From the IMG/VR virus record IMGVR_UViG_3300025670_000002: a stretch of DNA of 64,000 bases. One strand, 5' to 3'. The notes beneath the pieces were generated by a model. The model had not been told where the DNA came from. It ran no database searches and worked only from the letters and a program-made list of their open reading frames with translations. A program made the translations under genes and the position numbers. Positions 8,488 to 64,000 of the stretch are shown one piece after another (positions within the stretch are counted from its first letter, which is position 1; every line of letters starts with the position of its first letter). Source of the stretch: a virus (lineage: Duplodnaviria > Heunggongvirae > Uroviricota > Caudoviricetes).

Positions 8488-10395
8488 ATGAATGAAAAAA
8501 TGATAGAAGCGATAAAGGGTGTTGAGATTGGCGTCTCAAGTGGCAGACTTAAGATGAGCGACGTTAGCGACAGTTCGCTCTCCAATATGATTGACAAATG
8601 TAATCTCGAATACCGAAAGGGTAACGCGGTAGTCAGTGATGACTTTTACGACCACACCCTAATTGCGGAGCAGAAGCGCAGAAACCCCGACATAGAGGAT
8701 GAGCTTGAGATTGAGCCTGAGCTAATAAGCGGCAAGACTGTTGAATTGCCACAGCGTATGCTGTCAACTGACAAGGCGTATGATGCTGAGTCAATCAAAA
8801 AATGGATTACAAAAGTTCTTGCCGTCGGCGACACCTATGTAAAAGTAACACCGAAGCTTGATGGGTTTGCAACGTATGATGATGGCGAAAATCTCTACAC
8901 TCGCGGAAACGGATACAGAGGGACTGACATTACGCATGTGATAAATCGCGGAATCAAGATCGTGGGTGACGCCAGAGGAATGGGCCCTGGTGAAATTGTC
9001 ATAAACAAAGCTTATTTTGAAAAGCGTCTTGCTGACCATTTTGACAATTCAAGAAATGTTATCTCCAGTGTTATCAAAGAGGGTGAGTTGAGTCCCGTGA
9101 TTGCAACCGCGATGGCATGGGGCGCTGTTGTGTTCGCACCATTTGCTGAGATAAATCATATAATAGTTAGAGACAGACGCGAGGTAGAAAATATCTCCGA
9201 CATGATTGATAAGTTGTGGGCTGACTTAGTTGATGGGTCAAAATACGACACAGATGGGCTTGTGTTTGAGGCAACAAGCGACTCAGTGAAGAAAGAAATG
9301 GGGCACACAAGTCATCATCACAGATGGCAGATTGCTTACAAGCGCAACACTGAGTATAAGGACGTCAAAGTTCTCTCGATAACAAATCAAACTGGCAAGA
9401 CGGGTGTAATTACGCCCGTTGCAGAGCTTGACCCGACTAGAATATCAGGCGCAGTATTAAGCAGAGCAACCTGTCACAACTGGGGCAATGTGTTAAAAAT
9501 GGGTATCGGTGCTGGATGCACAGTAAGAGTGTTTCGATCAGGCTTAGTGATTCCATACATTGAAAAGGTTGTTGAGCATACGCAAACAGAAGCGATGCCT
9601 GATAAGTGCCCAAGCTGCGGTGCAGAAACAGAGTTGTCAAAATGTGGAACGCATTTGTCATGCACAAACAACACTGACTGTTCGGCGCAAGTAGAAGGTA
9701 TCATTGAGTATTGGTTCAAGACACTTGGTAATTGTGATGGGTTCGGACCAAAAGTAATTGCTGATATTGTTGGGTATGGCGTTGATAAGGTCAAAATGAT
9801 TTACGACTTAAATCAAGCTAATTTTGAAAACGCAGGATTAGGGGCTGGCATATCTGCAAACTTACTGTCCGAACTCGAAAGAAGCAGAACGGAGCAAATT
9901 GAAGACTGGCGATTTCTAGCTGCCTTCTCAATACATAATGTCGGGAAGGGAGGGTGTGAGCGGTTGCTAAAGCACCATAGACTTCTTGATATATTTGAAC
10001 TAACGGCAGACGATGTTGTTGAGATTGATGGCTTTGCTGAGAAAACAGCCAAAATTTTAGTTGATACATTGGAGAGAATTAAGCCCGACTTCGATTATCT
10101 TCACTCGTTGGGGTTCAATCTATCTGAAACACCGCTTGAGGGTGAGCTAGAAGCTGTTGACAGCCCGATAAGCGGTAAGACAATTGTTGTTACGGGTTCT
10201 CTACAAACGGGAAGCAGAAACGACATACATGACAAAATAAAAAGCATGGGTGGTATCGTAGGAAAAGCAGTGTCGGGGAAGACAGATATTTTAGTAATCG
10301 GCGAGAAGGTTGGTGAGTCAAAGTTGAAGGCGGCCACTAAGCATGGAACTGAGGTGATTGCAGAAAAAGCTTTTGTAGAAATGATGGGCGATTGA
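8488..10395 (+). CDS. ligA: NAD-dependent DNA ligase (LigA)
   Basis: KxDG adenylation motif (VTPKLDGFA). Zn finger CPSCG..x..CTNNTDC. C-terminal BRCT-like GKTIVVTGSL...ILVIGEKVG. Confidence 0.85.
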   Translation: MNEKMIEAIKGVEIGVSSGRLKMSDVSDSSLSNMIDKCNLEYRKGNAVVSDDFYDHTLIAEQKRRNPDIEDELEIEPELISGKTVELPQRMLSTDKAYDAESIKKWITKVLAVGDTYVKVTPKLDGFATYDDGENLYTRGNGYRGTDITHVINRGIKIVGDARGMGPGEIVINKAYFEKRLADHFDNSRNVISSVIKEGELSPVIATAMAWGAVVFAPFAEINHIIVRDRREVENISDMIDKLWADLVDGSKYDTDGLVFEATSDSVKKEMGHTSHHHRWQIAYKRNTEYKDVKVLSITNQTGKTGVITPVAELDPTRISGAVLSRATCHNWGNVLKMGIGAGCTVRVFRSGLVIPYIEKVVEHTQTEAMPDKCPSCGAETELSKCGTHLSCTNNTDCSAQVEGIIEYWFKTLGNCDGFGPKVIADIVGYGVDKVKMIYDLNQANFENAGLGAGISANLLSELERSRTEQIEDWRFLAAFSIHNVGKGGCERLLKHHRLLDIFELTADDVVEIDGFAEKTAKILVDTLERIKPDFDYLHSLGFNLSETPLEGELEAVDSPISGKTIVVTGSLQTGSRNDIHDKIKSMGGIVGKAVSGKTDILVIGEKVGESKLKAATKHGTEVIAEKAFVEMMGD

Positions 10396-15208: not shown

Positions 15209-15790
15209 GTGAATCCAGGGTGTTACGGTAGTGTCGCTTGCCACAATGAAGACAGTGACGCCTGTGCTAATTGCAGCCTGCTTAGTGAGTGTCATGAAGT
15301 GGCGTATAAGTCACTTCTTGAACTAAGTTCGGTAATGGATGTTGAGCACATCTTGAGGCGCTATCAGCAAAGTAGAATTAGATCAGGTGGTGAAGCACCC
15401 AAGAATATGGCGAGCTCAGGTAAGCGAGTTGAGCTAACTTCATACCAAAGAAGCATAGTTGATAATGAAAATTTCCCAGTAAAGTCTAGGAAAATGGCTG
15501 GTGCAATTTTTGCAAAGGGGATGGATGGGGGGCTGATTAGAAAGATGATATTCAACAAGGTAAATCCGTTTAAAGATGCAACCCCAGCGATTATGGACAT
15601 TTGCTGTGACCTATTGATAGCCAGAAGGCTAACTGCGGTAAATATGAACAGAGGGATTATCGATAGAAGTCAGAGGTCACTAAGTTACAAAACGGTAAAG
15701 TCCCAAGCATCCGTTGCGATAACCACGCTAATGCTAATGGGGGTCGTTGAGAGGTCAGGGCTTGACTATATATTGAGGAGAAAAAAGTGA
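15209..15790 (+). CDS. hypothetical protein with an N-terminal Cys cluster
   Basis: 193-aa ORF. Contains CYGSVACHNEDSDACANCSLLSEC. Confidence 0.45.
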   Translation: MNPGCYGSVACHNEDSDACANCSLLSECHEVAYKSLLELSSVMDVEHILRRYQQSRIRSGGEAPKNMASSGKRVELTSYQRSIVDNENFPVKSRKMAGAIFAKGMDGGLIRKMIFNKVNPFKDATPAIMDICCDLLIARRLTAVNMNRGIIDRSQRSLSYKTVKSQASVAITTLMLMGVVERSGLDYILRRKK

Positions 15791-18168
15791 GTAGAGAAAT
15801 TACTGGTTATTTACTGGCAACGCGATCTCACTTTTCGCTTGGCGAGAGTATGTTGTCGCCAAAAGAAATTGTGAAGACTGCAAAGGACAGAGGGCATCAT
15901 ACAGTTGCTCTCACAGACACAATGACGGTATCGGGAATGATGGAGTTCTCAAGTGCCGCAAAAGAGCATGATATTAAGGCGATCATAGGTTGCCGACTTC
16001 GCATCGTTATGGACTTGGCTTACAGAAAGCCAAAGCGATCTGAAATTGCTATGCCAAAAGATAACCCAGAGTGGTATCCAAAGGTGTATGTGAAAAACAA
16101 ACAAGGCATGACTGATCTCTTAGGAATGCTGTCGGTAGCAAATGACGAAGACCACTTTTTTCACGTCGCAAGATTGAGTCTAAAGGACTTACTTGTGTGC
16201 CTAAAGAAAGGAAATTTGGCAGTATCGACAGGCGACATGAACGGATTGTTTCATGTAAGCTGCAATAAGTATAATTACAAGCGTATATGTGAGTTATTAA
16301 ACATGCACGCAAGCAAATCCAATGTGTTTTTAGAGCATTCTATTGTTAATACTATACTCAGTGACACACTAGCAAAAAAAGTCGCTAAGATCGCATTAGA
16401 GAGCGAGGCTCAGACAATAGCAACGTATCCCGTTCTTTATAAAAATGAAGAAGATGCGGACACACTAGATGTTTTGGCTACCATTGTTCAAAACAATAAA
16501 ATAACAGACCCCTGGCGACATATCCCATACATCAGAAATTTCAGCCTAAAGTTTCCTGAAAAATATGTAAAGGACATGATTGACGCAAGTGCTAGATTAA
16601 AAGCCGATGGCGTTAGTATTAGCATGAAGAGATCGCTTGCTGGTGCAAAAGCACTGTCCGATATGTGTGAGTATGTTTGGGAGGTTCAGGAAATTTCGCT
16701 ACCAAAGATTGTCGAAAATGAGCACAGAGCCTTGATGGCTGAGGTTGCTAAGGGGTGGAATAGAAGAATCAAGGTTGAAACTCTGGGATACAAGCCTGAT
16801 CCATCGCTAATTCCAGTATACAAAGAGCGTCTTGCCTATGAAATTGGCATTCTTAATAGAATGGGGTTCGAGCGTTATTTCCTAGTTGTTCAAGACTTGG
16901 TAATGTGGGCGAGAGATAGCAATATTTTTGTTGGGCCAGGAAGGGGGTCTGATGGGGGCAGCTTGGTTGCATACCTTATGGGAATAACAGATGTTGACCC
17001 AATTAGATTTAATCTGATTTTCGAGCGATTTATCAATCCAGATCGACTTGATTTGCCAGATGCAGATTTGGATTTTATGTCAACGAGACGACATGAGGTT
17101 ATTCAATATCTAATTGACAAATACGGGCAGGACTATGTTGCTGGAATTTCAAACTATTCAACACTTGCATCTGCATCCGCACTTAGGGATTGCGGAAGGG
17201 TATATGGCATGTCTGGATTTGATCTATCTGCAACAAAGCTAGTTCCAAAAGAAGGGGGTAAGTCAGCAACGCTAACAGAGGCGGCTGAATTAGTTCCAGA
17301 AATTCAAGAGTTTAGAGATGCAAATGTTGATGTGTGGCGACACGCAACGAAGCTTGAGGGCGTAATGCGTAACATGGGTAAACATGCTGCTGGAGTTGTT
17401 GTGGCAAGTGTTCCGATTACAAATAGAGCCGTCGTTGAGAAGCGTTCTGGGGCAATGGTTGCTAACTGGGACAAGAGAAGCATCGAAGATCAAGGCTTAG
17501 TTAAGATTGATATTTTGGGGCTATCAACGCTTGATGTATTGCAAATAGCTGTGGACTACATCGAACAAAGAACTGGTGAGTTTATCGAGCTTACAAAGTT
17601 GCCAATTGATGATTACGAAACGATGAAGAACTTTGGCATTGGAAATACCGTGTCTGTATTTCAGTTCACATCTGGCGGAATGAGGCATCTGTTGAAAGAG
17701 TTGGCAAGAGGTGGAATGCTGACGTTCGATGATGTATCTGCGGCAACAGCACTGTATAGACCTGGACCTATGGAATCGGGCCTAATGGATGACTATATTG
17801 CAATCAAGCAAGGCATTGCTGATCCAGAGTATGACCATTACTCAATGAAAGGGGCGCTTGAGGTAACGGGTGGTGTGATTATTTACCAAGAGCAAACTAT
17901 GCAGATTGTTAGGGATGTTGCTGGCTTTACGATGGTCGAAGCAGACCATGTTAGGAAGGCTATGGGAAAAAAAGACATGGAGAAAATGAAAGCCCTTAGA
18001 GATAGATTTGTTGAAGGCGCAATGGCGGGGTATGTTGAGATAGAGTTTGATGATGGCACTACTAGAAAAGTCCACAAGATGACTAAATTCTCTGTAAAAG
18101 GGCGTGATGAGAAGGTCACTGTGATGGATATTTTCAAACATGGTTATGAAATCTCAGAGAACATTTAA
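15787..18168 (+). CDS. dnaE: DNA polymerase III alpha (DnaE), N-terminal fragment (PHP plus palm); recognisable similarity stops at ..RDRFVEGAMAG (~nt 18024), followed by a 47-aa unrelated tail
   Basis: PHP motif HFSLGESMLSPKEIVKTAKDRGHHTVALTDTMTVSG. Palm region FERYFLVVQDLVMWAR, GPGRGS, ILGLSTLDV. Confidence 0.8.
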   Translation: MSREITGYLLATRSHFSLGESMLSPKEIVKTAKDRGHHTVALTDTMTVSGMMEFSSAAKEHDIKAIIGCRLRIVMDLAYRKPKRSEIAMPKDNPEWYPKVYVKNKQGMTDLLGMLSVANDEDHFFHVARLSLKDLLVCLKKGNLAVSTGDMNGLFHVSCNKYNYKRICELLNMHASKSNVFLEHSIVNTILSDTLAKKVAKIALESEAQTIATYPVLYKNEEDADTLDVLATIVQNNKITDPWRHIPYIRNFSLKFPEKYVKDMIDASARLKADGVSISMKRSLAGAKALSDMCEYVWEVQEISLPKIVENEHRALMAEVAKGWNRRIKVETLGYKPDPSLIPVYKERLAYEIGILNRMGFERYFLVVQDLVMWARDSNIFVGPGRGSDGGSLVAYLMGITDVDPIRFNLIFERFINPDRLDLPDADLDFMSTRRHEVIQYLIDKYGQDYVAGISNYSTLASASALRDCGRVYGMSGFDLSATKLVPKEGGKSATLTEAAELVPEIQEFRDANVDVWRHATKLEGVMRNMGKHAAGVVVASVPITNRAVVEKRSGAMVANWDKRSIEDQGLVKIDILGLSTLDVLQIAVDYIEQRTGEFIELTKLPIDDYETMKNFGIGNTVSVFQFTSGGMRHLLKELARGGMLTFDDVSAATALYRPGPMESGLMDDYIAIKQGIADPEYDHYSMKGALEVTGGVIIYQEQTMQIVRDVAGFTMVEADHVRKAMGKKDMEKMKALRDRFVEGAMAGYVEIEFDDGTTRKVHKMTKFSVKGRDEKVTVMDIFKHGYEISENI

Positions 18169-22977: not shown

Positions 22978-25074
22978 ATGAGCGTCGCGGAAGATTTAGC
23001 AAAAGCACTAACAAAAGGTATCGGAGAGAACGATGAGAAGTCAGAAGTTACAGACTGGCTAAACACTGGCTTTCCGAACTTAAACATGGCTTTGTCGGGG
23101 AGACATAACGGCGGTCTTGGCTTCGGTCGTCTATATGAAATGTATGGGCCAAGTTCAAGCGGTAAGACAGCCATCGCAACTTACTTGATGATCGAGGCGC
23201 AGCGAAGAGGTGGTGTTGCCGTTTTTATTGATTACGAGCGATCATTTGACTTGGGAATGGCTGTAAACATGGGGCTAAAAGACGAATTTCCATTCTTTAT
23301 CTACAAGCAGCCCGAGACATGGGAAGAGGGGAACACTCAAGCAACAAGAGCGGCGCAGATCATTCGCGAGTCAAAGGCTATTCCTGAAAACGCACCTATT
23401 TTCATTGTTCAGGATTCAATTGCATCAGCAACACCTAAGTCAATGCTGTATGACAGCAAGGGAAAGAAGAAGGAAATGGATGAGCTAACGATGAATGATA
23501 CGACAGCGTTAAGCCGTGTCACCTCAACAACATTAAAAGTTGTCGCTCAGTTGGCAAATGAGCTAAATGCAACGGTTCTCTATCTCAACCAAATCAGAAC
23601 AAAGATCGGCGTTCTGCATGGTGACCCAACCTGTTTGAGAGGAGACACTGTCGTCCCCCTCACTAACGGAACGTCAATGAAAATCAAGGACATTGTTGAC
23701 AATAAAGTTGAAGCGGATGTGTGGTCATACAACGAAAGCTCTGGTGAATTTGAAGAGAGAAAGATTGTAAATTGGTTTGATAACGGCAAAATACCGGACG
23801 ATCAAGATTGGATTCATATAAAAACGTCAGGCGTTGAAACTAAAAATGGCGTTTGCGGCATGACTGTGACTCCAGATCATAAGGTTTTTATTGAAGACAA
23901 TGGGTGGTGCAGAGCAGATTCCGTCTCCGTGTCCGACATGTTGCTTACAAAAAGAACGACAAAAATTAGTGGAACACTTAGAGAGTTTATCTTTGGTGTA
24001 TTCGCTGGTGACTGCTCGTTGAGAAAAATGTCAGATAGAAGAACTACCGCCAATATGAAAATTCAGGATAACAATGACCCTGATTACGCAAGATGGAAGG
24101 TTGATAAATTAAGCCCGTTCTTTTCGTTCAAAAGGGGCAATGTCAAATGGAAAGGTGGTGAAGGCGTAAGATATGATTCCGAGTTTACATCTGAATTGGC
24201 AAGCTATGTTGACGTAAGCCGTGACCCACTGGAATTGATGTCTAAAAAGTCAGCGATGCAAATGGCAATTTGGATTATGGATGATGGCTACATGGACAAG
24301 AGCAGATGCAGATACACGGTATCAGTAAAAAGAAAGAAGAATGCAGACTATCTTGATAATCTGGCTGATATGTTTTTTGAGACGTGGGGTTTGACATCGA
24401 GGGTTAGAGAAAGAGAAGGCGCTTTGATCTTCAACGCAGACTCAAGTAGAAAGATTGCTGAAATGATTGCGCCATTTGTTCCTGAGTGTATGGAAAGGAA
24501 GTTGCCAGAAGAGCATAGAGGTAAGTATATTGAGTTTGATCTGACAAACGATGGCGATAAAATCAAGTCCGCATTCGTCCCTGTAACATCTGTGTCAATT
24601 AGGGATAGACAGGGGTATAGAGGTAGATATGATATTGAGGTCGAGAGCAATCACAATTATCTTGTCGGAAATAAAGATAACGGGGTTCTTGTTCATAATT
24701 GCACTCCAGGTGGCGGTGCTATGGAGTTTTATGCTTCTGGCAGAATTTCACTGGGGAGAACGAAGGTGATGGAGACGGTTAATGGCGATAAAGAAATGAC
24801 CGCTCAGATCATTAGAGCGAAGATAACCAAATCAAAGCACACTAGACCATTCAAGGTTGCAGAGTTGCGCATGGGCTTCAATGACGACGGCAGTGCGTAT
24901 TTTGAAGAAATATCAGTCATACTGGATTACTTAGTTAAGCTCGATATTATTGAAACTGCGGGTGCTTATGTCTTGTGGGATGGAAAGAAATATCACCGCA
25001 AGACACTTGCGAAGAAAATCATTGAAGATGGCGATGAAGATAAGTTGAGAAAAATGGTTCCCGACTATGTGTAG
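22978..25074 (+). CDS. RecA/UvsX-family recombinase interrupted by an intein
   Basis: RecA core GRLYEMYGPSSSGKTAIA and VAVFIDYERSFD. A 356-aa insert CLRGDTVV...VLVHN|C carries Hint blocks. Confidence 0.8.
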   Translation: MSVAEDLAKALTKGIGENDEKSEVTDWLNTGFPNLNMALSGRHNGGLGFGRLYEMYGPSSSGKTAIATYLMIEAQRRGGVAVFIDYERSFDLGMAVNMGLKDEFPFFIYKQPETWEEGNTQATRAAQIIRESKAIPENAPIFIVQDSIASATPKSMLYDSKGKKKEMDELTMNDTTALSRVTSTTLKVVAQLANELNATVLYLNQIRTKIGVLHGDPTCLRGDTVVPLTNGTSMKIKDIVDNKVEADVWSYNESSGEFEERKIVNWFDNGKIPDDQDWIHIKTSGVETKNGVCGMTVTPDHKVFIEDNGWCRADSVSVSDMLLTKRTTKISGTLREFIFGVFAGDCSLRKMSDRRTTANMKIQDNNDPDYARWKVDKLSPFFSFKRGNVKWKGGEGVRYDSEFTSELASYVDVSRDPLELMSKKSAMQMAIWIMDDGYMDKSRCRYTVSVKRKKNADYLDNLADMFFETWGLTSRVREREGALIFNADSSRKIAEMIAPFVPECMERKLPEEHRGKYIEFDLTNDGDKIKSAFVPVTSVSIRDRQGYRGRYDIEVESNHNYLVGNKDNGVLVHNCTPGGGAMEFYASGRISLGRTKVMETVNGDKEMTAQIIRAKITKSKHTRPFKVAELRMGFNDDGSAYFEEISVILDYLVKLDIIETAGAYVLWDGKKYHRKTLAKKIIEDGDEDKLRKMVPDYV
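23632..24699 (+). mobile_element. intein in the recombinase (Cys1 ... VHN, +1 Cys) with an endonuclease domain
   Basis: Block A CLRGDTVVPLTNG, block B VTPDHKVFI, C-terminal LVHN followed by C. Degenerate LAGLIDADG-like FIFGVFAGD and IWIMDDGYMD. Confidence 0.75.
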
Positions 25075-31310: not shown

Positions 31311-34300
31311 TTGATGGCGATAGAAGTAGAAAAAAGAAATGGCAGAAGAGAGCTGCTGAATGTAGGTAAGATTCACAAAGCAGTCCAATGGGCCTGCGAT
31401 GGACTTGACGTATCTTTGTCTGAAATAGAGACGGGTGCGCACATTCAGTTCTTCAATGGAATTAAGACCAGCGACATTCAGAGCGCGTTGATAGGGTCTG
31501 CTGCGTCGTTAATTGATGTTGATACGCCAGACTACGAATACGCAGCGGCAAGATTGATGTTGTTGCAGATTTATAAAGAAGCTGGCATGGGGGAGGTGTC
31601 GTATCTAAGCTTGGATGACTACGTTGCGCACGGTATTGAGATTGGAAGACTGTCTCCTGAATTGGCAAAGTTTGACCTGGAAGAGCTGGATAAGGGTATT
31701 GATCCAGAAAGAGATATGCAGTTTAAGTATCTAGGCATGCAAACGGTGTATGACCGATATTTGATTCAAGAAAATCCAGAAGTAGGAAGTGATCGCGGCA
31801 GAGTTATTGAAATGCCTCAGCACATGTGGATGCGTATTGCGATGGGGCTGGCTTTAAACGAGTTGTCAGAAGAAAGAACATTTAGAGCTATTCAGTTCTA
31901 CGATATTTTGTCCAAATTTGAGTTTGTGAGCTCAACACCAACTCTGTTTAATTCTGGAACAACACATCCTCAAATGAGTTCGTGCTTTGTGAATACAGTG
32001 CAGGATGCTATTTGGGAAAGATCGCAAAACAACCCAATTGGCGATGGGATATTTGGAACAATCACCGAATGTGCTTTGTTGTCAAAGTTTGCTGGTGGTA
32101 TTGGGACTGATTGGACTAGGGTTAGACCAACTGGTTCGCACATTAAATCAACTAATGGAACGTCGTCCGGAATCGTTCCTTACCTAAAAGTGTTTAATGA
32201 CACTGCGGTTGCGGTTAATCAATCATTCACACCCGACACCATGTTGGTTACAAAGGATGGATTTAAGCGCATTGAGGATGTTGTGAGTGCCGATCTTTTG
32301 ATGAATGGGTCTGGTGACTTTAGAGAGATAGAGAAGATAAAGTCATACGATCAGCACGACCCCGTTGTGTCAGTCAAGTTTGCCAGAGGAATTGAACCAG
32401 TGGAGGTGACATCCGGTCACAGATTTCTCGTAGTTAGGGGGATACGACTCAGAGAGTCATTTAAGCGCGTAAATTGGAATGATAAAAAAACCGAGTGGGT
32501 TGAGGCAAAAGATCTGTTGGATACTGACATGCTTTGTGTTGCGCAGCCAAGTCCTAATTCGGCACATTTGATACATTCGGAAGATGATTGCAGAATGTAT
32601 GGCGTCATGATTGGGGACGGTCACGTAAAGAAGGATAGGTATGAGGCTGGTGTATCTCTGGGCATCGACGGGAAGAGCGATGTCATTTCATTTGTGAGGT
32701 CGTATCTAAAAAGCAAGTCGGTTCATAGCTGGGAGACTGTTGACGGAAAGTGTCAGTATATTTCTTGGAACTCAAGAGACCTGCCTGCATTCTCAAGAAA
32801 TTCTCTTTATGATAAACACGGCGAAAAGAGAATTTGTGGGGACATGTTGAATGTCCCACCAACTCACGCAATATTCATAATTCAAGGCATGTTGGAGACA
32901 GACGGCTATTACAAGAAGTCAGGTTCAATGAACTATGTAACAACGTCAAGAAACCTTGCGGAGTCATTTAGGTTTTTATGCACAAAGTTTGGCGTTTTGC
33001 CAACGGGATATAGAAGAAAAATTTCTGGCGGAACGTTTACAAAAAGATGTGGCGAGAAGGTGAAGAGGGAGAACTGTAAAGATATTTATGAGGTGTCGAC
33101 TCCGATATTCTCAGAGATTTCTGATATTTTCGACGTCCCAAAGACAACAACGTTTCAAGGGTGGTATAGGCTCGAATCGGGCGCTTTGCTGAATAGGGTG
33201 AGATCGGTTACGCCAATTGACTATAGTGGCTACGTGTATGACTTTGAGATGGATGGCCCACATAGCTACTCGATCAGTGAGGGAATCGTGCATAACGGTG
33301 GCAAAAGAAATGGTAGTTTCGCGGCATACCTAGAACCCTGGCATGGCGATATTGAAAGATTCTTGTCACTCAAGAAGCCAAATGGTGACGAGCGTTTGCG
33401 GGCAAGGGAAATATTTCCTGCACTCTGGACAAATGACTTATTCATGGAGCGAGTTCGTGACCAGAAGGATTGGTCACTGTTTGACTCGCATGAATATCCA
33501 GAACTACATCAGCTTCATGGTGATGACTTCAAAATTGCTTACGAGCAAGCAGAAGCCGATGGGGGTGCGATAAGAACTGTTAATGCAGAAGTTCTCTGGA
33601 GAAAGATTATCACGGCTCTAGTAGAGTCTGGTGCGCCCTGGATTACATTCAAAGACGAGTTCAATAGAAGAAATCCTCAAAAACACATTGGTTCTATTTT
33701 ATCGAGCAACTTATGCTGCATGACGGCAGACCAAAGAGTTGTTACTGATGCAGGAATTATGACGGTTGGTGAGCTATATGCCTCCGAACGTAGTAATAAA
33801 GTCGTTGGCTTGTCTGAATTTAGTGATGCCTCAAAGATGCTTCTGCCAAGACCCAATGCGCCAATTGTTCAGATCAACACCGCAGAGGGATATGAGCACA
33901 AAGTAACTCCAGACCATAGAGTTTGGGTAAGAGATAAGGGGTGGGTTGAGGCGCAAGATTTGGAGTCTGGCGACAAGTTGCTAACTCAACAAATTGAAGG
34001 AATGTTTGGTGAACAGCATTTTCCAAAGCTTGCTTTGATTGCAGGCTTGGTAGCTGGTGACGGGACGTTTAGCGAAAAGGCTGGTTCAACAATATCAGTT
34101 CATATTGATTTGTGGGGCGAGAAGACTGGTAAATTCGTTCCTGTTGTTGAAAAGGTTGTTGAGAGTTTGATATGTGGTGAGGTAGCGTCTACATCATCGG
34201 TTCATAAGCCGAAGTTTTCATTCAATCACGCCAAGAACTCATATAGACTTTGCAGTGCGCCATTGGCAAGAGTTCTTGATGAAATGGGGTTCAATAAGCA

Positions 34301-35846
34301 AACTAAGTTAGATGTGCCTGATTTTGTTTGGAAGGGAACAAGATCAACAGTTATGGGGTATCTTAGAGGCTTGTATCTGACAGATGGAAACATACAGGTT
34401 GGTAAAGATGCGACATGCATGGCGCTGTCATCATCAAGTAGAGATTTCCTAAGAGATATTCAGATACTTTGGGCTAACTTTGGGGTCAAGTCGTCAATGA
34501 ATAAGGTTCATAACGGCGGCATGCGTGACTTTGGCGATGGGTATGGCGAGTATGAGTGCAAGACTGTCTGGAGATTGTTAATAACCTCAATTCAGGGCTG
34601 TCAGATTGCAGAGCGTGTGACCATGTTGGGCAAGTATAGAACTGGAGACGGTGCGGATACATTTGTTAGTAACCTAAGTAAGAAAGGGTATAAGCAGAAG
34701 CTATATGCAACATTCACTGACTTAACTGAGTTGCCAAATGAAGATGCCTACTGCTTGACTGTTGACTCAGAAACTCACGCTTGGACTGTAAATGGGCTGA
34801 TAACTCATAATACCGAAATTGCCTTAAATACGAGTGACGATGAGACCGCCGTTTGCAATCTGGGCTCAATTAATATATCAGTCGTCAAGCCTCACATGTT
34901 TAGCCGAGTGATTCCAATCGCAATGCGTATGCTTGACAACGTAATTGATTTGAATTTCTATCCAACTGAAAAGGCTCGCGCTACAAATATGAAGCACCGA
35001 CCTGTTGGATTGGGCTTGATGGGGTGGGCTGATTACATTGTTGAAAAAGGTATTGATTGGGAATCAATTGCTCACCTAAAAGAAACTGATAATGTTTTTG
35101 AGCAATTTTCTTACTGGGCAATTAGCGGCTCTGTTGATTTGGCACAAGAGCGCGGTGCTTATGAGTCATTCAAAGGCTCAAACTGGGACGAAGGCATTTT
35201 TCCAATTGACACCGCAAGGGAGCTACCGAGTGAATGGAGTGCCGATTCAAGCGAAAGAGTTATTACTCAATGGGATACGTTGAGAGCTCGCCTTGAAGAG
35301 CACGGCATTAGAAACTCCAACTGCACATCGTTAGCACCAACCGCAACTATTTCAAATCTTGTTGGAACTGAGCCTTGTATCGAGCCCCCTTTCAAGCAGG
35401 TCTCAATAAAAGAGAACAAGTCTGGCAAGTTTAAAGTTGTCGCACCTTCCCTACGTCACGGCAGACCTGAATTGGTAAAAGTTGCATTCAATATTGACCA
35501 GAAGTGGATCATTAGACCAGCCGCAGTTCGTCAAAAGTGGCTGTGTCAGTCGCAATCCGTGAACCTGTTTAAGAAGCTTGGTGTAAAGGGTAGCGTAATT
35601 AGCTCATGGTATTTCTTAGCATGGGAGTTAGGTCTTAAATCTACATACTACCTAAAGCAACAGATTAATGAGCTAACTGATGAAGAGGCTGGGACTTCGT
35701 TAGTCAAGCAGGCTCTTGAAAGGCTTGAGAAGCCTGTTGACCCTGTTGGTCCCGTTGAGGTTGATGGTGAGAAGAGTCTCGATGATATGGTTGATGGTGT
35801 AAAGGTTTGCAGTATCAGCAACCCAGAATGCGAGAGCTGTCAATAA
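31311..35846 (+). CDS. nrdA: class I ribonucleotide reductase alpha subunit (NrdA-like) with ATP cone and two inteins
   Basis: ATP cone VEKRNGRRELLNVGKIHKAV. PTLFNSGT...SSCFV. NQ|[intein]|GGKRNGSFAAYLEPWH. SNLC|[intein]|TEIALNTSDDETAVCNLGSINI. C-terminal CxxC tail. Confidence 0.9.
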   Translation: MMAIEVEKRNGRRELLNVGKIHKAVQWACDGLDVSLSEIETGAHIQFFNGIKTSDIQSALIGSAASLIDVDTPDYEYAAARLMLLQIYKEAGMGEVSYLSLDDYVAHGIEIGRLSPELAKFDLEELDKGIDPERDMQFKYLGMQTVYDRYLIQENPEVGSDRGRVIEMPQHMWMRIAMGLALNELSEERTFRAIQFYDILSKFEFVSSTPTLFNSGTTHPQMSSCFVNTVQDAIWERSQNNPIGDGIFGTITECALLSKFAGGIGTDWTRVRPTGSHIKSTNGTSSGIVPYLKVFNDTAVAVNQSFTPDTMLVTKDGFKRIEDVVSADLLMNGSGDFREIEKIKSYDQHDPVVSVKFARGIEPVEVTSGHRFLVVRGIRLRESFKRVNWNDKKTEWVEAKDLLDTDMLCVAQPSPNSAHLIHSEDDCRMYGVMIGDGHVKKDRYEAGVSLGIDGKSDVISFVRSYLKSKSVHSWETVDGKCQYISWNSRDLPAFSRNSLYDKHGEKRICGDMLNVPPTHAIFIIQGMLETDGYYKKSGSMNYVTTSRNLAESFRFLCTKFGVLPTGYRRKISGGTFTKRCGEKVKRENCKDIYEVSTPIFSEISDIFDVPKTTTFQGWYRLESGALLNRVRSVTPIDYSGYVYDFEMDGPHSYSISEGIVHNGGKRNGSFAAYLEPWHGDIERFLSLKKPNGDERLRAREIFPALWTNDLFMERVRDQKDWSLFDSHEYPELHQLHGDDFKIAYEQAEADGGAIRTVNAEVLWRKIITALVESGAPWITFKDEFNRRNPQKHIGSILSSNLCCMTADQRVVTDAGIMTVGELYASERSNKVVGLSEFSDASKMLLPRPNAPIVQINTAEGYEHKVTPDHRVWVRDKGWVEAQDLESGDKLLTQQIEGMFGEQHFPKLALIAGLVAGDGTFSEKAGSTISVHIDLWGEKTGKFVPVVEKVVESLICGEVASTSSVHKPKFSFNHAKNSYRLCSAPLARVLDEMGFNKQTKLDVPDFVWKGTRSTVMGYLRGLYLTDGNIQVGKDATCMALSSSSRDFLRDIQILWANFGVKSSMNKVHNGGMRDFGDGYGEYECKTVWRLLITSIQGCQIAERVTMLGKYRTGDGADTFVSNLSKKGYKQKLYATFTDLTELPNEDAYCLTVDSETHAWTVNGLITHNTEIALNTSDDETAVCNLGSINISVVKPHMFSRVIPIAMRMLDNVIDLNFYPTEKARATNMKHRPVGLGLMGWADYIVEKGIDWESIAHLKETDNVFEQFSYWAISGSVDLAQERGAYESFKGSNWDEGIFPIDTARELPSEWSADSSERVITQWDTLRARLEEHGIRNSNCTSLAPTATISNLVGTEPCIEPPFKQVSIKENKSGKFKVVAPSLRHGRPELVKVAFNIDQKWIIRPAAVRQKWLCQSQSVNLFKKLGVKGSVISSWYFLAWELGLKSTYYLKQQINELTDEEAGTSLVKQALERLEKPVDPVGPVEVDGEKSLDDMVDGVKVCSISNPECESCQ
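32223..33296 (+). mobile_element. RNR intein 1 (Ser1 ... IVHN, +1 Gly), LAGLIDADG type
   Basis: Block A SFTPDTMLVTKDG, block B TSGHRFLV, motifs VMIGDGHV and IIQGMLETDGYY, ends GIVHN. The residue after the insert is G. Confidence 0.65.
33717..34811 (+). mobile_element. RNR intein 2 (Cys1 ... ITHN, +1 Thr), LAGLIDADG type
   Basis: CMTADQRVVTDAG, VTPDHRVWV, LIAGLVAGDGTF, YLRGLYLTDGNI, ends LITHN followed by T. Confidence 0.8.
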
Positions 35847-59634: not shown

Positions 59635-59678
59635 CGCTGTCATAATACAATCTCTTTAAACAAACAGTGAGAAAGCAA
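59635..59678 (+). promoter_or_regulatory. family B leader motif CGCTGTCATAATACAATCTCTTTAAACAAACAGTGAGAAAGCAA followed by ATG at 59679
   Basis: Direct comparison with the copies at 59101 and 57678. Confidence 0.5.
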
Positions 59679-60158
59679 ATGGCATATTTAACGCCAGAGC
59701 AAATCGAAGCAATCAAAGAAATCGAAGCAACACCAGCAAAGCATCGAGAAGACATACCAAGCGGGGACGAGAATTACACAGTAGAAATTTTACACGTCCA
59801 AGCAGTAAGCCAGACCTATTTAGCTAGTAGCCACACAGTAGTAGAGGGTGACCTAAGCAATCACTCTCTCATTCAAACACTAAGAGGAAAGAACGTGTCA
59901 GAATTTACACAGATCAAAGCCCATAAGCACGATTGCGATGCTTGCACTTATGTAGGAACAACTGAAGTAAAGGGAGCTACATTTGATATGTATATTTGCC
60001 TAGATAACAGCAACCGATTGGATTCAACAGCGGTTGCTAGATTCGGTAAAGATGGGGATTGCATATCTGCTCCATTTGGTATTCTTGACAGAACACCCGC
60101 ACTGATAGATTACCCACCGCAAATTTGCCTAGATAGATACAGAGGTAGTATCTCCTAG
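59679..60158 (+). CDS. hypothetical protein (start at ATG 59679; the listed ORF starts at GTG 59667 inside the conserved leader)
   Basis: 159-aa ORF after the family B leader. Confidence 0.45.
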   Translation: MAYLTPEQIEAIKEIEATPAKHREDIPSGDENYTVEILHVQAVSQTYLASSHTVVEGDLSNHSLIQTLRGKNVSEFTQIKAHKHDCDACTYVGTTEVKGATFDMYICLDNSNRLDSTAVARFGKDGDCISAPFGILDRTPALIDYPPQICLDRYRGSIS

Positions 60159-60173
60159 CAACAGTGATAACGA

Positions 60174-60198
60174 GGGCAGCGCAACAGTTGCCCTTTTT
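60174..60198 (+). terminator. terminator GGGCA..TGCCC followed by TTTTT
   Basis: 5-bp stem plus T-run. Confidence 0.5.
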
Positions 60199-60253
60199 AT
60201 TATTCTACTGAGACCCAAGGGCGACACGCTCTTGTCCCTCACCATAGAATCAA

Positions 60254-60365
60254 ATCACCATAGGTTTCCCCATTGGATCGGCTTCGGTTAATATGACAGC
60301 GGGGTATCCCTCACCCTTGGTTGAAAATCACTATGGGTTTCCCCATTGGATCGGCTTCGGTCAAT
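60254..60365 (+). repeat. two 41-nt direct repeats AATCACYATRGGTTTCCCCATTGGATCGGCTTCGGTYAATA separated by a 30-nt unique spacer
   Basis: The copies at 60254-60294 and 60325-60365 differ at 3 positions. Confidence 0.8.
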
Positions 60366-60957
60366 ACACAGGCGGCAGGAGTGAACTGCCTTGGTTGTTT
60401 GAAATTCCAAGGTCAGAATTCTGTATAGGATAAGGCAAGCTTTCTATAAGGCAGGGGGCTGGATGCTAAAATCACTAAAAATGATATTAAATCTCAAAAC
60501 ATCATCAAAAATGATAATCATTTAAAACGATGTAATATTTTTAAACATCATCAAAAATGATAACTCAGTAAAATCAACATTATCATTTTCTATGATAATA
60601 GCTGTTTTGTTCTTCTTATATAGTATAGTGAAAATTAAACTAAATTTCTTTTAAAATCAGTCACTTATAAATTAATTTTATTTATTTTCAATTCTCTTTA
60701 AAATCAACAACTTACAATTTTATTGTTTAAAAACAGTCGCTTATAAGACTGCATCAAAAGCGGTAAAAGTCAGTAATTGCTTATTATTTTATTTTTGTTT
60801 GTGTTTAAAATCAATCACTTGTAAAAAGTTTTAAAAAAGAAGTTTTTATTTATTGCGCTTTTTTTTAAGTTCTGTAAACTTAATTTCGTCGTCAAGCAAA
60901 ACGACAAACGAAAGCACATTAACTAATTAACGCTACATTGTAGCAAGTGAGAATAAA

Positions 60958-61554
60958 ATGATTTTATCTAATGAAGAGCTAGCAGTATTGAATGCAATTG
61001 AATCTAATGATATTGAAGCGTTAGAAGCTATTGAGAGCGATTTTAATAATGCAGCTTATGACATATCAGACGACATTAAAAACCGCGCTTATGTAGCGTT
61101 AGAATCGCTTAAAAATACAAGCTTAAATGTTAGCACTGATAAAAAAGCAGATTTAGAAAAAAATGCTTTAAACAGAACAAGATTAATAAACAAGTTTAGC
61201 AGTAAATATACTAAAGAGATTGATTATATAATAAACATGTATGATGAAAATATGATAAGTGAGTTGATGACATTATCATGCTACAAAACAAGTGAGCGTA
61301 TTTTATGCGCTGTTGCTTATTTAATTGATGATAGCAGTATAAAAAAAGAGAGAACTTTAAATAGTAATGCTTTTGATGTTTTAAAGAAAAACAAAACATT
61401 GTCGGTTGATACATTTAGTTTTAAAACTGTAAAAGATAAGAGTCGAGCTAATAAGCTATTGAAAGCTTATATTTTCTTAAAGCTTGTAAGCGTAGAAAAT
61501 AAGCAATACAGAGCGACTTTAAAAAGTGATGATGTAATTACAAGCTTAGTCTAG
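60958..61554 (+). CDS. hypothetical protein encoded in an AT-rich block compositionally distinct from the phage genes
   Basis: 198-aa ORF whose codon usage is strongly A/T-biased. The surrounding 60420-61900 is much more AT-rich than the rest of the window. Confidence 0.45.
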   Translation: MILSNEELAVLNAIESNDIEALEAIESDFNNAAYDISDDIKNRAYVALESLKNTSLNVSTDKKADLEKNALNRTRLINKFSSKYTKEIDYIINMYDENMISELMTLSCYKTSERILCAVAYLIDDSSIKKERTLNSNAFDVLKKNKTLSVDTFSFKTVKDKSRANKLLKAYIFLKLVSVENKQYRATLKSDDVITSLV

Positions 61555-61747
61555 TATCAATAAACTAAAAGAGTATATAATTATGTTAGTATTAAAATCA
61601 TTCATTAGCAAGTCGGGTGCAAACAAGTCAAAAGCACAATATAAAAGATATAATAAAAAACCGACTGATATAACTATACATACGTTAAAAGATAATAGAT
61701 TAATAAACAATAAGAGATATATATTCTTTATTAATATATAAACAGAT

Positions 61748-61790
<43 letters not shown>

Positions 61791-61795
61791 AATAA

Positions 61796-61831
61796 AGAGA
61801 TAATATATATTATTATATTATCTCTTTTTTT
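61796..61831 (+). terminator. AT-rich palindrome AGAGATAATATATATTATTATATTATCTCT followed by TTTTTTT
   Basis: Perfect inverted repeat plus T-run. Confidence 0.5.
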
Positions 61832-62106
61832 ATGCGCGTTAGAAAATCAATCAATAATAATCTTTAAACATCAAATTCTACGCGCTTGAAATAGCGCATA
61901 TCAAGCGATAAGTATTTTTTGCTATCAGAGTTAGTAAATCAGATTATCACCGCTTAAAAGCTATATATGAAAGTCTTAGATATGAGTGAATGTAGCGGCA
62001 TACCTCCCCTCCAGACTCCATGACTCGAAAATCCGAGTCCTTATATAATAATTGGGGGTCAGAACCTATGTCCTTATATATGGATTGGCTCTAGCCCCGT
62101 GAATCC

Positions 62107-62424
62107 TTATAGTTCGCCGCTCTCAATCATAGCTTCAAGACGCGCACGTTTGTCTGGCGATAGATTTTTTACCTTCTTGGACAAAGAGGGCATCGCATCA
62201 GACTCGTAGTGAAACTTGACAGCGGCATCAAGAACAGCAGAGTCCTGTTCAGCCAGTAGAATGAGTGCAGATGCCAGTTGCCACTGACGGATATTGGTAT
62301 GTGAAATGCCCTGCATTTCACACTCAATGTCGTGACGCTCGTTGGCAATCTTGACCAATTTATTCAGGACATTGGATGAGTTAGATGGGATAGAAACGGT
62401 CTTTCGATCTGATGGGCTTAACAT
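62107..62424 (-). CDS. hypothetical small protein next to the integrase (possible regulator or directionality factor)
   Basis: 105-aa minus-strand ORF co-oriented with the integrase. No motif recognised. Confidence 0.45.
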   Translation of the reverse strand: MLSPSDRKTVSIPSNSSNVLNKLVKIANERHDIECEMQGISHTNIRQWQLASALILLAEQDSAVLDAAVKFHYESDAMPSLSKKVKNLSPDKRARLEAMIESGEL

Positions 62425-62506: not shown

Positions 62507-63691
62507 CTATTCCCTTATTTTTGCATTGTCCGATATGTAGTCTGATATTTTTTGCATAGGCTCACGCAATCTATCGACGTTTATCTGAATATAATTGCCA
62601 GTGACATCTTTGCCGCCGACCTTATGATTCACTAATGCCTTTAGGGTGTAGTGCGATATATCCAGGCTCTCAGCATAGGTGATGAATGTTCGCCTTAAGT
62701 CATGGATCGTGAAGTGATAGCCGATGGCTTTGCCAACAGCAATGACGTTCTTTTTTGGCTCCTCTATGTGTCCAGACGCAGAAGTGGGGGAGGGGAATAC
62801 GAACCTGTCGTTGTCTATGAACTGGCGCTGCTTCATGATCTCATACAGTTGATCGGACATAGGCAGCTCAATATCTATGTGATTTTTAGGATCGATAATA
62901 AGAAAGCTTCTGGTTTTCATATCGACATCAGACCACTTAAGCCCAGATATTTCTCTTCGTCGAGCGCCTGTGTAAATGATGAACTTCATGTAATCACCCA
63001 CCGTTCTGTTTCTTAGCTTATTTACCTCAGTGAACCATGAGCTCAGATACACTGGCTTTAAATAAGCGGTCTTTGGTCTGACTTTGTTCCATTGTTTATT
63101 TTCAGATAGTCGCGATACTGGATTCATAAGAATTACTGGCTCCCCGTTTATTTCGTATTTGGACTGAGCGAATGTAAATATTGCGCCGATAGTTCTGGTG
63201 AACTTATTTGCCTGTGCTGGGCCACGTTGTTTACTCATTAATATATGGCGATCCTCAACCATGTCTTTGGAAATTGACTTCATCTCTTTATTTAGCCAAT
63301 CCTTGTATGCACCGTTGATCGCTCTATTATATTCATCCAAAGTCGTCTTCTCCAGTGTTCTGGATTTCTTGTAACTAACGAACGCCTCATCGAGAGTTAC
63401 CGTTTTCATTCGGCTTATTTTCTTAACTTCGTTTGCATCGACTCCTTTGTTGAAATTGGCAATTGTCTCGGTTGCAATTTTCTTTGCCTCGATAACAGAC
63501 ATGAGCGGAAATTTCCCGACAGTTACTCTACGGGTTTTCCCATTGACTCTTCCTTCGCAAATAAATGACTTTGAGAACTTGCCTATTAATACGCCAAACT
63601 TTGAAAAGTCGGTATCCCAGAAAATCTTCTGGCCAGATACGGACAGTGGTAAACTGGCTACTGAGTGGTTGTTTATTTTTATGTGGCTCAT
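62507..63691 (-). CDS. int: tyrosine site-specific integrase (P4-like, with N-terminal arm-binding domain)
   Basis: N-terminal GKTRRVTVGKFPLMSVIEAKKIA. Catalytic R, H-x-x-R and Y: ..TGARRREISGL.., HDLRRTFITYA.., ..TGNYIQ. Confidence 0.85.
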   Translation of the reverse strand: MSHIKINNHSVASLPLSVSGQKIFWDTDFSKFGVLIGKFSKSFICEGRVNGKTRRVTVGKFPLMSVIEAKKIATETIANFNKGVDANEVKKISRMKTVTLDEAFVSYKKSRTLEKTTLDEYNRAINGAYKDWLNKEMKSISKDMVEDRHILMSKQRGPAQANKFTRTIGAIFTFAQSKYEINGEPVILMNPVSRLSENKQWNKVRPKTAYLKPVYLSSWFTEVNKLRNRTVGDYMKFIIYTGARRREISGLKWSDVDMKTRSFLIIDPKNHIDIELPMSDQLYEIMKQRQFIDNDRFVFPSPTSASGHIEEPKKNVIAVGKAIGYHFTIHDLRRTFITYAESLDISHYTLKALVNHKVGGKDVTGNYIQINVDRLREPMQKISDYISDNAKIRE

Positions 63692-63816
63692 ATTGCTTGT
63701 TTAATTTGCTTAAAATTAATAGGCATATAATAGGCATTTGAAAATAGACTGTCCAATTAATAGGCAATTAATAGGCAGATAATGGAGGTAAGATAGTTGT
63801 GATTCTTTGGCGTTTT

Positions 63817-63940
63817 AGCGATATGCTCAGTGTTTACGAGGCTTGCCGAGTAATAAGCGGCGACCGAAGGGAGGCAGTCCGGTTAGAGCACAGGATTCAT
63901 AACCCTGGGGTCCCAAGTTCAATTCTCGGTATCGCCACCA
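63817..63940 (+). tRNA. CAT-anticodon tRNA-like sequence (Met/Ile2 type) with a ~48-nt insertion in the D-loop. The 3' 60 nt (63881-63940) are canonical. The 5' 16 nt (63817-63832) are slightly degenerate (A1.C72 mismatch, position 9 missing).
   Basis: 3' part by hand folding: GGTTA GAGC A CAGGA TTCATAA CCCTG GGGTC CCAAG TTCAATT CTCGG TATCGCC A CCA. 5' part: AGCGATA T GCTC AGTG. Acceptor pairs 6/7 and D-stem pairs 4/4. D-arm GCTCAGTG[insert]GGTTAGAGCA is the tRNA-Ile2/Met consensus as I recall it. Confidence 0.5.
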
Positions 63941-63964
63941 TTAACTTCTTTATTGAAGTAATCA

Positions 63965-63990
63965 AACCAGCCTTCAGTGCTGGTTTTTTT
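63965..63990 (+). terminator. terminator AACCAGC-CTTCAGT-GCTGGTT followed by TTTTTTT, directly after the tRNA-like CCA end
   Basis: 7-bp stem plus T-run. Confidence 0.7.
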
Positions 63991-64000
63991 ATGCCTGAAA

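Follow-up and report, generated by a model that had tools for sequence, protein, structure and literature searches.

Near the end of the window, i.e., the whole stretch of 64,000 nucleotides that was analysed, a tRNA-Met-like sequence interrupted in its D loop lies beside an integrase gene. A sequence-only reading had interpreted the locus as the junction of a prophage with its host (attR) and had named a tRNA with a D-loop intervening sequence and a decayed phage tRNA as alternatives. Which of these does the locus represent, and what is the segment that splits the tRNA? The bases at 63817-63990 match the earlier description. The feature is very probably the int-proximal junction (P arm, core, and host B' arm; "attR") of a prophage of more than 64 kb, integrated in the tRNA-Met(CAU) gene of a Methyloprofundus-type methanotroph. 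The junction itself is ordinary; what is new is that its phage arm contains a small two-hairpin module, which is conserved and covaries.

The split tRNA-Met sequence

Screening of the whole 64-kb window with ARAGORN yielded neither a tRNA nor a tmRNA, and the native split sequence gave no Rfam match at the gathering score. In the E-value mode of Rfam, the sole tRNA match (63873-63937) reaches 18.1 bits and so falls short of the gathering score, which is 29. When the region was compared at near-identity with E. coli genomes and GenBank phages, no match was obtained either. Once 63833-63880 is deleted, ARAGORN calls a 76-nt tRNA-Met(CAT) with three A.C mismatches (1-72, 31-39, and 51-63); the tRNA is thus called only after the deletion. 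The 5' piece at 63817-63831, AGCGATATGCTCAGT, is at most two edits away from nt 1-16 of the real host tRNA and is unique in the window, and an equally good match arises in only 10 of 50,000 shuffles of the upstream 250 nt. Detection after deletion, together with the rarity of the 5' piece among shuffles, indicates that the split tRNA-Met-like sequence is real and not due to chance. The slight degeneracy that had been ascribed to the 5' piece is also present, as it forms an A1.C72 pair and lacks nt 9.

The non-tRNA segment spans 63832-63874 (about 43 nt), with CAGT at both its sides. An insert of 48 nt, followed by a tRNA 3' part from 63881, had been proposed; the interruption is borne out, whereas its boundary has to be moved, as identity to the host begins at 63875, 6 nt further 5'. 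Nor is the 3' part "perfect", since it contains the A31.C39 and A51.C63 mismatches; an intact host gene has exactly the same bases, and both mismatches are therefore native to the host tRNA. The terminator attributed to the tRNA was recovered by a terminator scan, with a stem at 63964-63986 and a T run to 63993, after which the window stops within 7 nt. Features of the locus are collected in Table 1.

Table 1. Features at the integrase-proximal end of the window
Feature	Position	Strand	Basis or remark
Tyrosine integrase, 394 aa	62507..63691	-	Last gene; transcribed away from the tRNA-like sequence
Four exact TAATAGGCA repeats, putative arm-type Int sites of the P arm	63717..63777	+	Exact copies
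Promoter-like site for int (TGGACA, 17 nt, TATTAT)	63727..63755	-	Consensus match; overlaps the arm repeats
Phage-borne copy of tRNA-Met nt 1-17 (AGCGATAT-GCTCAGTG)	63817..63832	+	A at nt 1, nt 9 missing
Hairpin 1 (predicted): AC-GA-GG-CUUG-CC-GA-GU, stem with tandem G.A	63836..63851	+	Motif common to the window, L010, and L047
Hairpin 2 (predicted): GGCGACC-GAA-GGGAGGC	63859..63875	+	RNAalifold and pair counts
tRNA-Met(CAU) nt 13-76 and encoded CCA	63875..63940	+	Identical to the host gene
Anticodon loop TTCATAA, inferred crossover region	63896..63902	+	Analogy with L010, L009, and L014
Host 3' flank of the tRNA gene with intrinsic terminator	63941..64000	+	60/60 vs L007, 57/60 vs L005

Integrase and arm repeats

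The window is a large phage genome. Its ORFs lie nearly all on the + strand, the GC skew across the 64 kb is strongly positive, and the encoded proteins include a DnaE-type polymerase, an NAD-dependent ligase, and a CobT-like protein, as well as PhoH-like, RecA/UvsX-like, and ribonucleotide reductase ORFs, each of which carries intein or homing-endonuclease domains. The adjacent, divergent integrase is of the P4 type, as had been stated: it combines the catalytic domain (PF00589 Phage_integrase, 8.6e-14) with an arm-binding one (PF13356 Arm-DNA-bind_3, 3.7e-07), matches PHROG 1 integrase (4.8e-43), and is accompanied by clustered TAATAGGCA repeats. Many of its homologues (n=2657; nearest 54% identical) come from Methylococcaceae.

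The TAATAGGCA copies upstream of the integrase form two pairs with 11-bp spacing (63717-25 and 63728-36; 63758-66 and 63769-77), and a fifth, inverted copy lies inside int (63580-63588). Five copies per 64 kb compare with 0.53 expected, and all fall within 200 bp (63580-63777). Relatives carry equivalent repeats, with sequences of their own, between int and the tRNA-like region, and the repeats presumably are arm-type Int binding sites. The site at 63727-63755 is the sole sigma-70-type match within 63500-64000, and from its sequence we infer that it would drive int. No consensus promoter facing the tRNA-like sequence was found in the scan of the same interval.

The host side of the junction

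The uninterrupted host tRNA-Met sequence (GGCGATATAGCTCAGTCCGGTTAGAGCACAGGATTCATAACCCTGGGGTCCCAAGTTCAATTCTCGGTATCGCCACCA) was searched for with an exact 32-nt query in IMG/VR and a 60-nt query in species-representative genomes. Exact matches to the 3' part were found in five Methylococcaceae/Methyloprofundus genomes and in three IMG/VR proviruses, in every case together with an uninterrupted 5' half. The genomes include that of the methanotrophic gill symbiont of Bathymodiolus platifrons (L007). There, the tRNA-Met gene is intact, is followed by the same terminator, and has ychF on one side and an isoamylase/GlgX-like gene, which converges on it, on the other. In BLAST comparisons, the segment 63875-64000 (tRNA nt 13-76 plus 60 nt with the terminator) is identical to L007 at 126/126 positions and to a second host lineage, L005, at 123/126. 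Since the L007 locus is uninterrupted, this identity indicates that 63875-64000 is host DNA (B' arm); the terminator is host DNA too, as both L007 and L005 carry it. Beyond the stretch matching the end of the window, the L007 flank begins with TATAAGCGAGCAATCC, whereas L005 shares the tRNA and 64 nt downstream of it before diverging into toxin-antitoxin genes. The L007 locus is an unoccupied site, and this comparison supports the prophage attR reading. The host would accordingly be a Methyloprofundus-type methanotroph of the Bathymodiolus/Gigantidas gill-symbiont clade.

Different DNA follows the same tRNA-Met gene in other genomes: a converging integrase in L001-3, a truncated integrase with an IS3 transposase in L008, and other sequences in L004 and L006. 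The variety of this DNA, including integrase-bearing elements, marks the gene as an integration hotspot. A match to AATAGGCATTTG after the terminator of L005 made this locus a candidate for the attL of a prophage like the one in the window; the candidate was rejected, as its downstream toxin-antitoxin modules are unlike the window. Within the 64-kb window, there is no second copy of the tRNA segment, which places the other junction outside it. The case for integration rests on one junction and on the empty site in a related genome.

Related elements with the same arrangement

The DNA upstream of the integrase was read in eleven relatives. Four distinct elements share the architecture of the window, their integrases being 46-54% identical to that of the window, and contain tRNA-Met-like or tRNA-Thr-like copies with two hairpins between D-loop nt 17 and 18. 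The closest of them, L010 (Met-like; integrase 54% identical), has a 5' piece, GGCGATAAGCTCAGTG, that is identical to that of the window at 14/16 positions, followed by a 50-nt insert about 80% identical to the window insert, a degenerate D and anticodon-stem region, and then TTCATAA with a good tRNA 3' half; it is without an anticodon stem. The remaining three (L047, L050-52, and L053; integrases 46-49% identical) are Thr-like and consist of a degenerate 5' piece, a 47-48-nt insert, and a perfect tRNA-Thr(TGT) from the D loop on. Pairing in the acceptor stem amounts to 3/7 in L053 and 5/7 in L047. Both of these loci come with a terminator of their own and are flanked on either side by arm repeats, and are therefore complete attP sites; the L053 unit has the inverted orientation with respect to int.

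Other relatives (L049, L048, L013, and L011) carry an uninterrupted tRNA or 5' half beside int, while L009 and L014 show tRNA identity solely from the anticodon loop onward. The integrases of the insert-bearing elements form no clean clade. As the same 5' piece and module recur beside int in four relatives, both belong to the element and not to the host.

Position of the crossover

In L010, L009, and L014, the sequence to the left of the anticodon loop cannot pair with the right strand, so that in these elements tRNA identity begins with that loop. The ends of the Logan contigs fall exactly 30 nt inside a block common with a second path, as is expected of an assembly with k = 31. For L010, this places the start of the shared block between GA and TTCATAA; for L014, the start is at the anticodon loop, and for L050, it is at TCAGTTGG. 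In the window, the crossover is unreadable, since phage arm and host do not differ from 63875 onward. By analogy with the relatives, it probably lies near the anticodon loop, further 3' than the insert, and the tRNA homology on its 5' side appears to be variable and dispensable in the phage arm.

A crossover in the D loop at the edges of the insert is not favoured, since L010 matches its host only from the anticodon loop; its arm keeps CAGTCC and the degenerate D/anticodon-stem region. The insert edges are thus not the recombination joint, and the insert is part of the phage arm. Of the earlier proposal, the joining of a phage 5' piece to a host 3' segment stands, whereas the placement of the joint at the insert edge does not, as the insert belongs to the phage arm in the relatives.

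The two-hairpin module

In the window and its four relatives, the module is always located between D-loop nt 17 and 18, and U8, A14, G15, G18, G19, and A21 are kept in five out of five elements. A short D-loop segment flanks the insert on both sides (e.g., CAGT in the window, TCAGT in L010, and TCAGTTG in L050 and L053). For the five elements, RNAalifold predicts the D stem and both hairpins. In hairpin 1, the motif ACGAGG-loop-CCGAGT is common to the window, L010, and L047, and the inner stem reads GG/CC in the window and L010, GGUC/GACC in L047, and GGGC/GCCC in L050 and L053; compensatory pairs lengthen it in L047, L050, and L053. Hairpin 2 has a 7-bp stem and a GAA or GGA triloop; in the window, its GNA triloop closes an imperfect stem with tandem G.A. 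Among L047, L050, and L053, the sequence of this stem is almost wholly different, while its pairing is kept, and 5/7 of its pairs are changed on both sides across the five elements.

The predicted structure accounts for pairing in 89.9% of the cells, vs 25-44% with slid partners. Pairs changed on both sides number seven, compared with 3.4 in shuffles (3/500 shuffles reach seven), a weak statistic insofar as the five independent module sequences are related to one another. The module pairs include three G.U and no A.C, and in 5/5 elements folding is better for the strand of tRNA sense than for its complement. Furthermore, the loops are more conserved than the stems, which is the opposite of what a palindromic protein site would show and points to a folded single strand. 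A stable fold of the window insert by itself was considered and discarded (z-score about 0); for the inserts of the window and L010, the predicted stability does not exceed that of shuffled sequence.

No further representatives of the module were detected. Five different patterns found none in IMG/VR, the JGI metagenome contigs yielded only three chance matches, and distant BLAST against INPHARED phages gave no match. A covariance model of the module (R1) recovered no additional members in 248 kb of collected loci, and a search for other copies was negative for the rest of the 64-kb window, for 38 kb of host DNA, and for the full set of about 264 kb of sequence. In E-value mode, Rfam returned only sub-threshold or artefactual tRNA matches, and no other family, for the window and its relatives; the 30.1-bit match of L047 is an artefact of a D-arm-less alignment in which the D loop is paired with the acceptor 3' strand. 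Inspection by eye revealed no small ribozyme core, including hammerhead. On comparative grounds, the module is a conserved, apparently folded single-strand element of this att family, and we would guess that, within the transcript or strand of tRNA sense, it serves as a domain with a structural role or one that binds protein. In a shallow literature search, no structured D-loop module was found to have been reported for tRNA copies borne by attP, so that, as far as the literature was searched, the two-hairpin module is apparently undescribed.

Proposed mechanism

The phage attP would carry a nearly full-length copy of the target tRNA. Bound to arm and core sites, Int would exchange strands inside this copy, with the 7-nt anticodon loop as the most likely place. 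Beyond the window, at the far end of the prophage, a working tRNA would be rebuilt from the host 5' half, the phage 3' half, and the phage terminator. The junction in the window would be chimeric, combining the 5' piece and the module of the phage with the 3' part of the host, and would yield no working tRNA.

The predicted energies bear on the last of these steps. For the window, the cloverleaf with the hairpins has -20.7 kcal/mol, vs a minimum of -37.4 for a different fold, in which the insert pairs with the T and acceptor 3' strands. When the inserts are removed, ARAGORN calls only L047 (and the window with one particular deletion), whereas the spliced L053 is not called. In the window and in L047, GCAGATAATGG with a -10-like GATAAT occurs 31-33 nt upstream of the 5' piece. 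The chimeric junction is probably not a working tRNA.

It is a tentative and rather doubtful possibility that the attP tRNA copies encode a new small structured RNA, consisting of a tRNA-derived scaffold, in which the D stem and the tertiary nucleotides of the D loop are retained, with a two-hairpin domain at nt 17/18, or that the hairpins act as single-stranded DNA in recombination. The 3' half of such an RNA would be swapped for that of the host at each integration. The RNA might play a role in lysogeny or recombination control, or might undergo maturation via its tRNA-like part, like P4 CI RNA.

Comparison with known systems

K. P. Williams reportedly classed tRNA att sites in 2002 by their sublocation, i.e., anticodon loop, T loop, or 3' end. 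The present locus has the integrase domains, the clustered arm repeats, the host flank, and the empty site that characterize an att junction, all recognized from sequence only, and it works in the manner of the att sites that heterobivalent (lambda/P4-type) tyrosine integrases use in tRNA genes. It resembles such sites in the arm-binding and catalytic domains of the integrase, the arm repeats beside int, the identity of att to the tRNA 3' part, the displaced fragment at the prophage end, and the hotspot character of the gene. It differs from them in that int is located 5' of the tRNA fragment and points away from it, the tRNA sequence in the phage arm reaches back to nt 1 instead of being confined to the 3' part, and the tRNA copy is split in the D loop by the two-hairpin module. 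In KplE1 (CPS-53), whose IntS/TorI system at argW is said to involve a P4-family integrase with a promoter within the att region, recombination proteins can reportedly control int expression. The window is similar in that the promoter-like site for int overlaps the putative arm repeats. It differs in that it yielded no directionality factor; to our knowledge, KplE1 has no interrupted tRNA copy.

Group I introns occur in the anticodon loops of bacterial tRNAs, and archaeal bulge-helix-bulge introns can lie in the D loop; we know of no tRNA splicing endonuclease in bacteria. The locus shares with these systems a tRNA-like sequence broken by a short structured segment. Unlike them, its 43-48 nt are too short for a group I intron and lie outside the anticodon loop, and the insert is seen only in element-borne copies, the host gene being uninterrupted. 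Both intron types were rejected, with negative results from the ARAGORN intron mode and Rfam and with the bulge-helix-bulge geometry judged by eye. A tmRNA was dismissed as well: the ARAGORN tmRNA search was negative, and an anticodon arm is present.

As a short imperfect-hairpin insertion, the module resembles REP/BIME and IS200/IS605-derived elements. REPs begin with GTAG, and the Thr-type inserts likewise start with GTAG. In contrast to REP/BIME, no dispersed copies were found, and the two hairpins differ from each other instead of being inverted copies of one unit. A dispersed miniature repeat (REP/MITE-type) was set aside, there being no copies elsewhere in the ~264 kb or in the collection scans. 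The P4 CI RNA and the C4 antisense RNA (RF01695) are phage regulatory RNAs matured by RNase P via a tRNA-like fold. They would provide a precedent for a small tRNA-like RNA in P4-type elements if the module acts as RNA; unlike them, the locus has no Rfam match to RF01695 or any other family.

In actinobacteriophages, a tyrosine integrase recombines at an attB that overlaps a host tRNA gene, and the fate of the tRNA matters for lysogeny; in this tRNA-dependent lysogeny, the common core measures ~10 bp, integration leaves the host tRNA unrestored, and its loss is made good by a phage tRNA of the same isotype (Guerrero-Bustamante and Hatfull 2024, PMC10865867). The present locus is unlike this system, with an identity block of at least 66 nt in place of the ~10-bp core and no tRNA gene in the 64-kb window, and tRNA-dependent lysogeny was not adopted as an explanation.

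Alternative explanations

If the element were unintegrated, or if a tandem junction were present, the window would end within attP, so that the tRNA 3' part and a terminator identical to that of the host would be borne by the phage and P' repeats would lie just past position 64000. The relatives L047, L053, and L049 do have a tRNA or tRNA-like sequence with a terminator between arm repeats on both sides, and the end of the window, 7 nt past the terminator T run, would suit this arrangement. It is nevertheless highly improbable: over the 60 nt that follow CCA, identity is 100% with the flank in L007 and 95% with that in L005, i.e., with two host lineages with no element there and with different downstream genes, whereas a phage-borne copy would be expected to differ, as do the element-supplied flanks in L001-3, L004, L006, and L008. 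The same host identity contradicts a decayed phage-encoded tRNA gene unrelated to integration, which had been listed among the earlier alternatives. In its favour, the sequence resembles a tRNA, and tRNA genes are frequent in large phages; yet the host locus is matched without a difference by its 3' part and the next 60 nt, no other tRNA gene exists in the 64-kb window, its position is between the arm repeats and the host flank, and the architecture is conserved beside integrases, which leaves this explanation hardly credible.

More closely tied to the module is the possibility that the locus is a working tRNA or tRNA-like RNA gene, transcribed from the phage arm, whose D-loop intervening or expansion sequence is tolerated or removed. 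The insertion point at nt 17/18 is the length-variable part of the D loop, the six conserved tRNA nucleotides (U8, A14, G15, G18, G19, and A21) are kept in the five elements, the hairpins covary, with wobble pairs only on the tRNA-sense strand and loops exceeding stems in conservation, and GCAGATAATGG with its -10-like GATAAT precedes the 5' piece in the window and L047. All the same, neither ARAGORN nor Rfam calls the sequence, nt 9 is missing, and 1-72 is A.C; the minimum-energy fold of the window destroys the cloverleaf, the acceptor stem is reduced to 3/7 in L053 and 5/7 in L047, the spliced L053 is no tRNA for ARAGORN, and L010 lacks an anticodon stem. Moreover, no consensus promoter was found, the host gene is uninterrupted in 5/5 genomes, and there is no match to a group I intron or another known family. 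Such a gene is very unlikely; the intervening sequence once suggested as an alternative is unsupported at this locus, although the insert has a conserved structure. As to how the module arose, the chief competing explanation is a selfish miniature insertion, in which the 43-48-nt segment would be a hairpin element of the REP/RAYT or IS200/IS605-derived type that entered dispensable phage tRNA copies at a D-loop target. Tandem G.A and C-GNA-G triloops are classic motifs of stable single-strand DNA hairpins, and the module has tandem G.A and GNA triloops; the short D-loop repeat on both sides of the insert (CAGT up to TCAGTTG), the use of the same site in two tRNA identities, and the lack of a clean clade among the insert-bearing integrases could be explained in the same way. 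Against this stand the want of any other copy in the window, the 38 kb of host DNA, or the other loci, and of any match in IMG/VR, the JGI metagenome contigs, or the INPHARED phages; in addition, the window and L010 share an altered 5' piece, which suggests descent and not repeated insertion. A selfish origin is accordingly judged unlikely.

Biological significance

Read as a prophage junction in the host tRNA-Met gene, the locus is of local importance: it fixes one boundary of the prophage and names the host clade, the Methyloprofundus-type mussel symbionts, and the tRNA-Met gene is marked as a hotspot of integration. In addition, the target tRNA can be present almost in full, as a copy, within the attP sites of such integrases. 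Split copies of this kind explain why tRNA finders miss such junctions, and tools that delimit prophages may misplace their boundaries. In at least five elements, the attP tRNA copy carries a conserved, covarying two-hairpin module at one position of the D loop. If functional, the module would add either a phage RNA or an accessory element to those so far recognized in site-specific recombination.

The host tRNA-Met gene as an integration hotspot

The native tRNA-Met(CAU) of the host clade carries two A.C mismatches, 31-39 and 51-63 (63895/63903 and 63916/63928 in the window), both of which are kept in five Methylococcaceae/Methyloprofundus genomes and three proviral contigs (L001-L008). Such mismatches are unusual for functional tRNAs; a C50.A64-type mismatch also occurs in the tRNA-Thr of L049, a related integrase-bearing locus. 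The tRNA-Met gene is an integration hotspot: besides the element of the window, foreign DNA of at least three further kinds directly follows it (in L001-L003, L004, L006, and L008; see the table).

Sequences resembling the phage arm repeats are found on the host side. In the Bathymodiolus platifrons symbiont (L007, about 1955-1975), where the site is empty, the -10 region of the tRNA-Met promoter is a palindrome, AATGCCTATAATAGGCATT, that includes the phage arm repeat TAATAGGCA. The palindrome matches GCATATAATAGGCATT of the window (63722-63737) at 15 of 16 positions, a score equaled in 2-3 of 500 shuffles. It could represent a captured promoter, an additional host-side integrase site, or a chance resemblance. 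In a second host lineage sharing the tRNA and its terminator (L005, about 2472-2585), the motif AATAGGCA occurs twice, 100-215 nt 3' of the terminator, one copy lying inside a 12-nt match, AATAGGCATTTG, to the arm region of the window; toxin-antitoxin genes (ParD-like/zeta, DUF433/DUF5615) come next. These motifs may be the remnant of an old P' arm (the phage arm on the far side of the att core) from an element like the one in the window, or they may have arisen by chance.

Gene content of the prophage

Nearly all genes of the window are carried by the + strand, with a GC skew of approximately +0.2, and ARAGORN detects no tRNA gene in the whole 64 kb. The prophage extends beyond the window. 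A domain search found intein/homing-endonuclease domains in three phage genes (e.g., the RecA/UvsX-like recombinase). Just inside the integrase end, the GC content drops to 0.30 (60001-62000) versus about 0.42; since neither Pfam nor PHROG gives a match to the ORFs of this stretch (59667-60158, 60958-61554, and 62107-62424), it may constitute cargo or moron DNA.

Phage genes of the window and foreign DNA following the host tRNA-Met gene
Feature	Location	Domains
PhoH-like protein	window 1730-3526	LAGLIDADG_3/Hom_end
NAD-dependent ligase	window 8488-10395	
CobT-like protein	window 11892-13919	
DnaE-type Pol III alpha	window 15787-18168	
RecA/UvsX-like recombinase	window 22978-25074	Intein_splicing + LAGLIDADG_2
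Class I ribonucleotide reductase large subunit, 1511 aa	window 31311-35846	two intein/LAGLIDADG stretches
29-53-kb proviruses with converging integrase	after tRNA-Met in L001-L003	
Truncated integrase + IS3 transposase	L008:1848-3901, after tRNA-Met	
Other flanks	after tRNA-Met in L004, L006	

Attachment sites of related elements

The phage attachment site (attP) of L049 (JGI 3300043325 contig, about 900-1200) contains a complete tRNA-Thr(TGT), called by ARAGORN, together with its terminator, the two being flanked on both sides by identical copies of the repeat TAGTAGACCTATAGTAGACC; genes for an NAD ligase and an SNase adjoin it. This attP is the uninterrupted counterpart of the sites bearing the two-hairpin module. 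In two of the latter, the Rfam tRNA model takes L047:167-225 (30.1 bits, slightly above the gathering score) and L053:535-593 as D-arm-less tRNAs by pairing the D-loop GUUGGUA with the acceptor 3' strand. Because the D loop of tRNA-Thr resembles the acceptor 5' strand, these alignments are artefacts, and automated annotation could be misled by them.

Three Logan contigs of related integrase-bearing loci (L010, L014, and L050) end exactly 30 nt inside the block that they have in common with the host tRNA, consistent with graph branching at k = 31. Such stop points provide a cheap indicator of where att identity starts.
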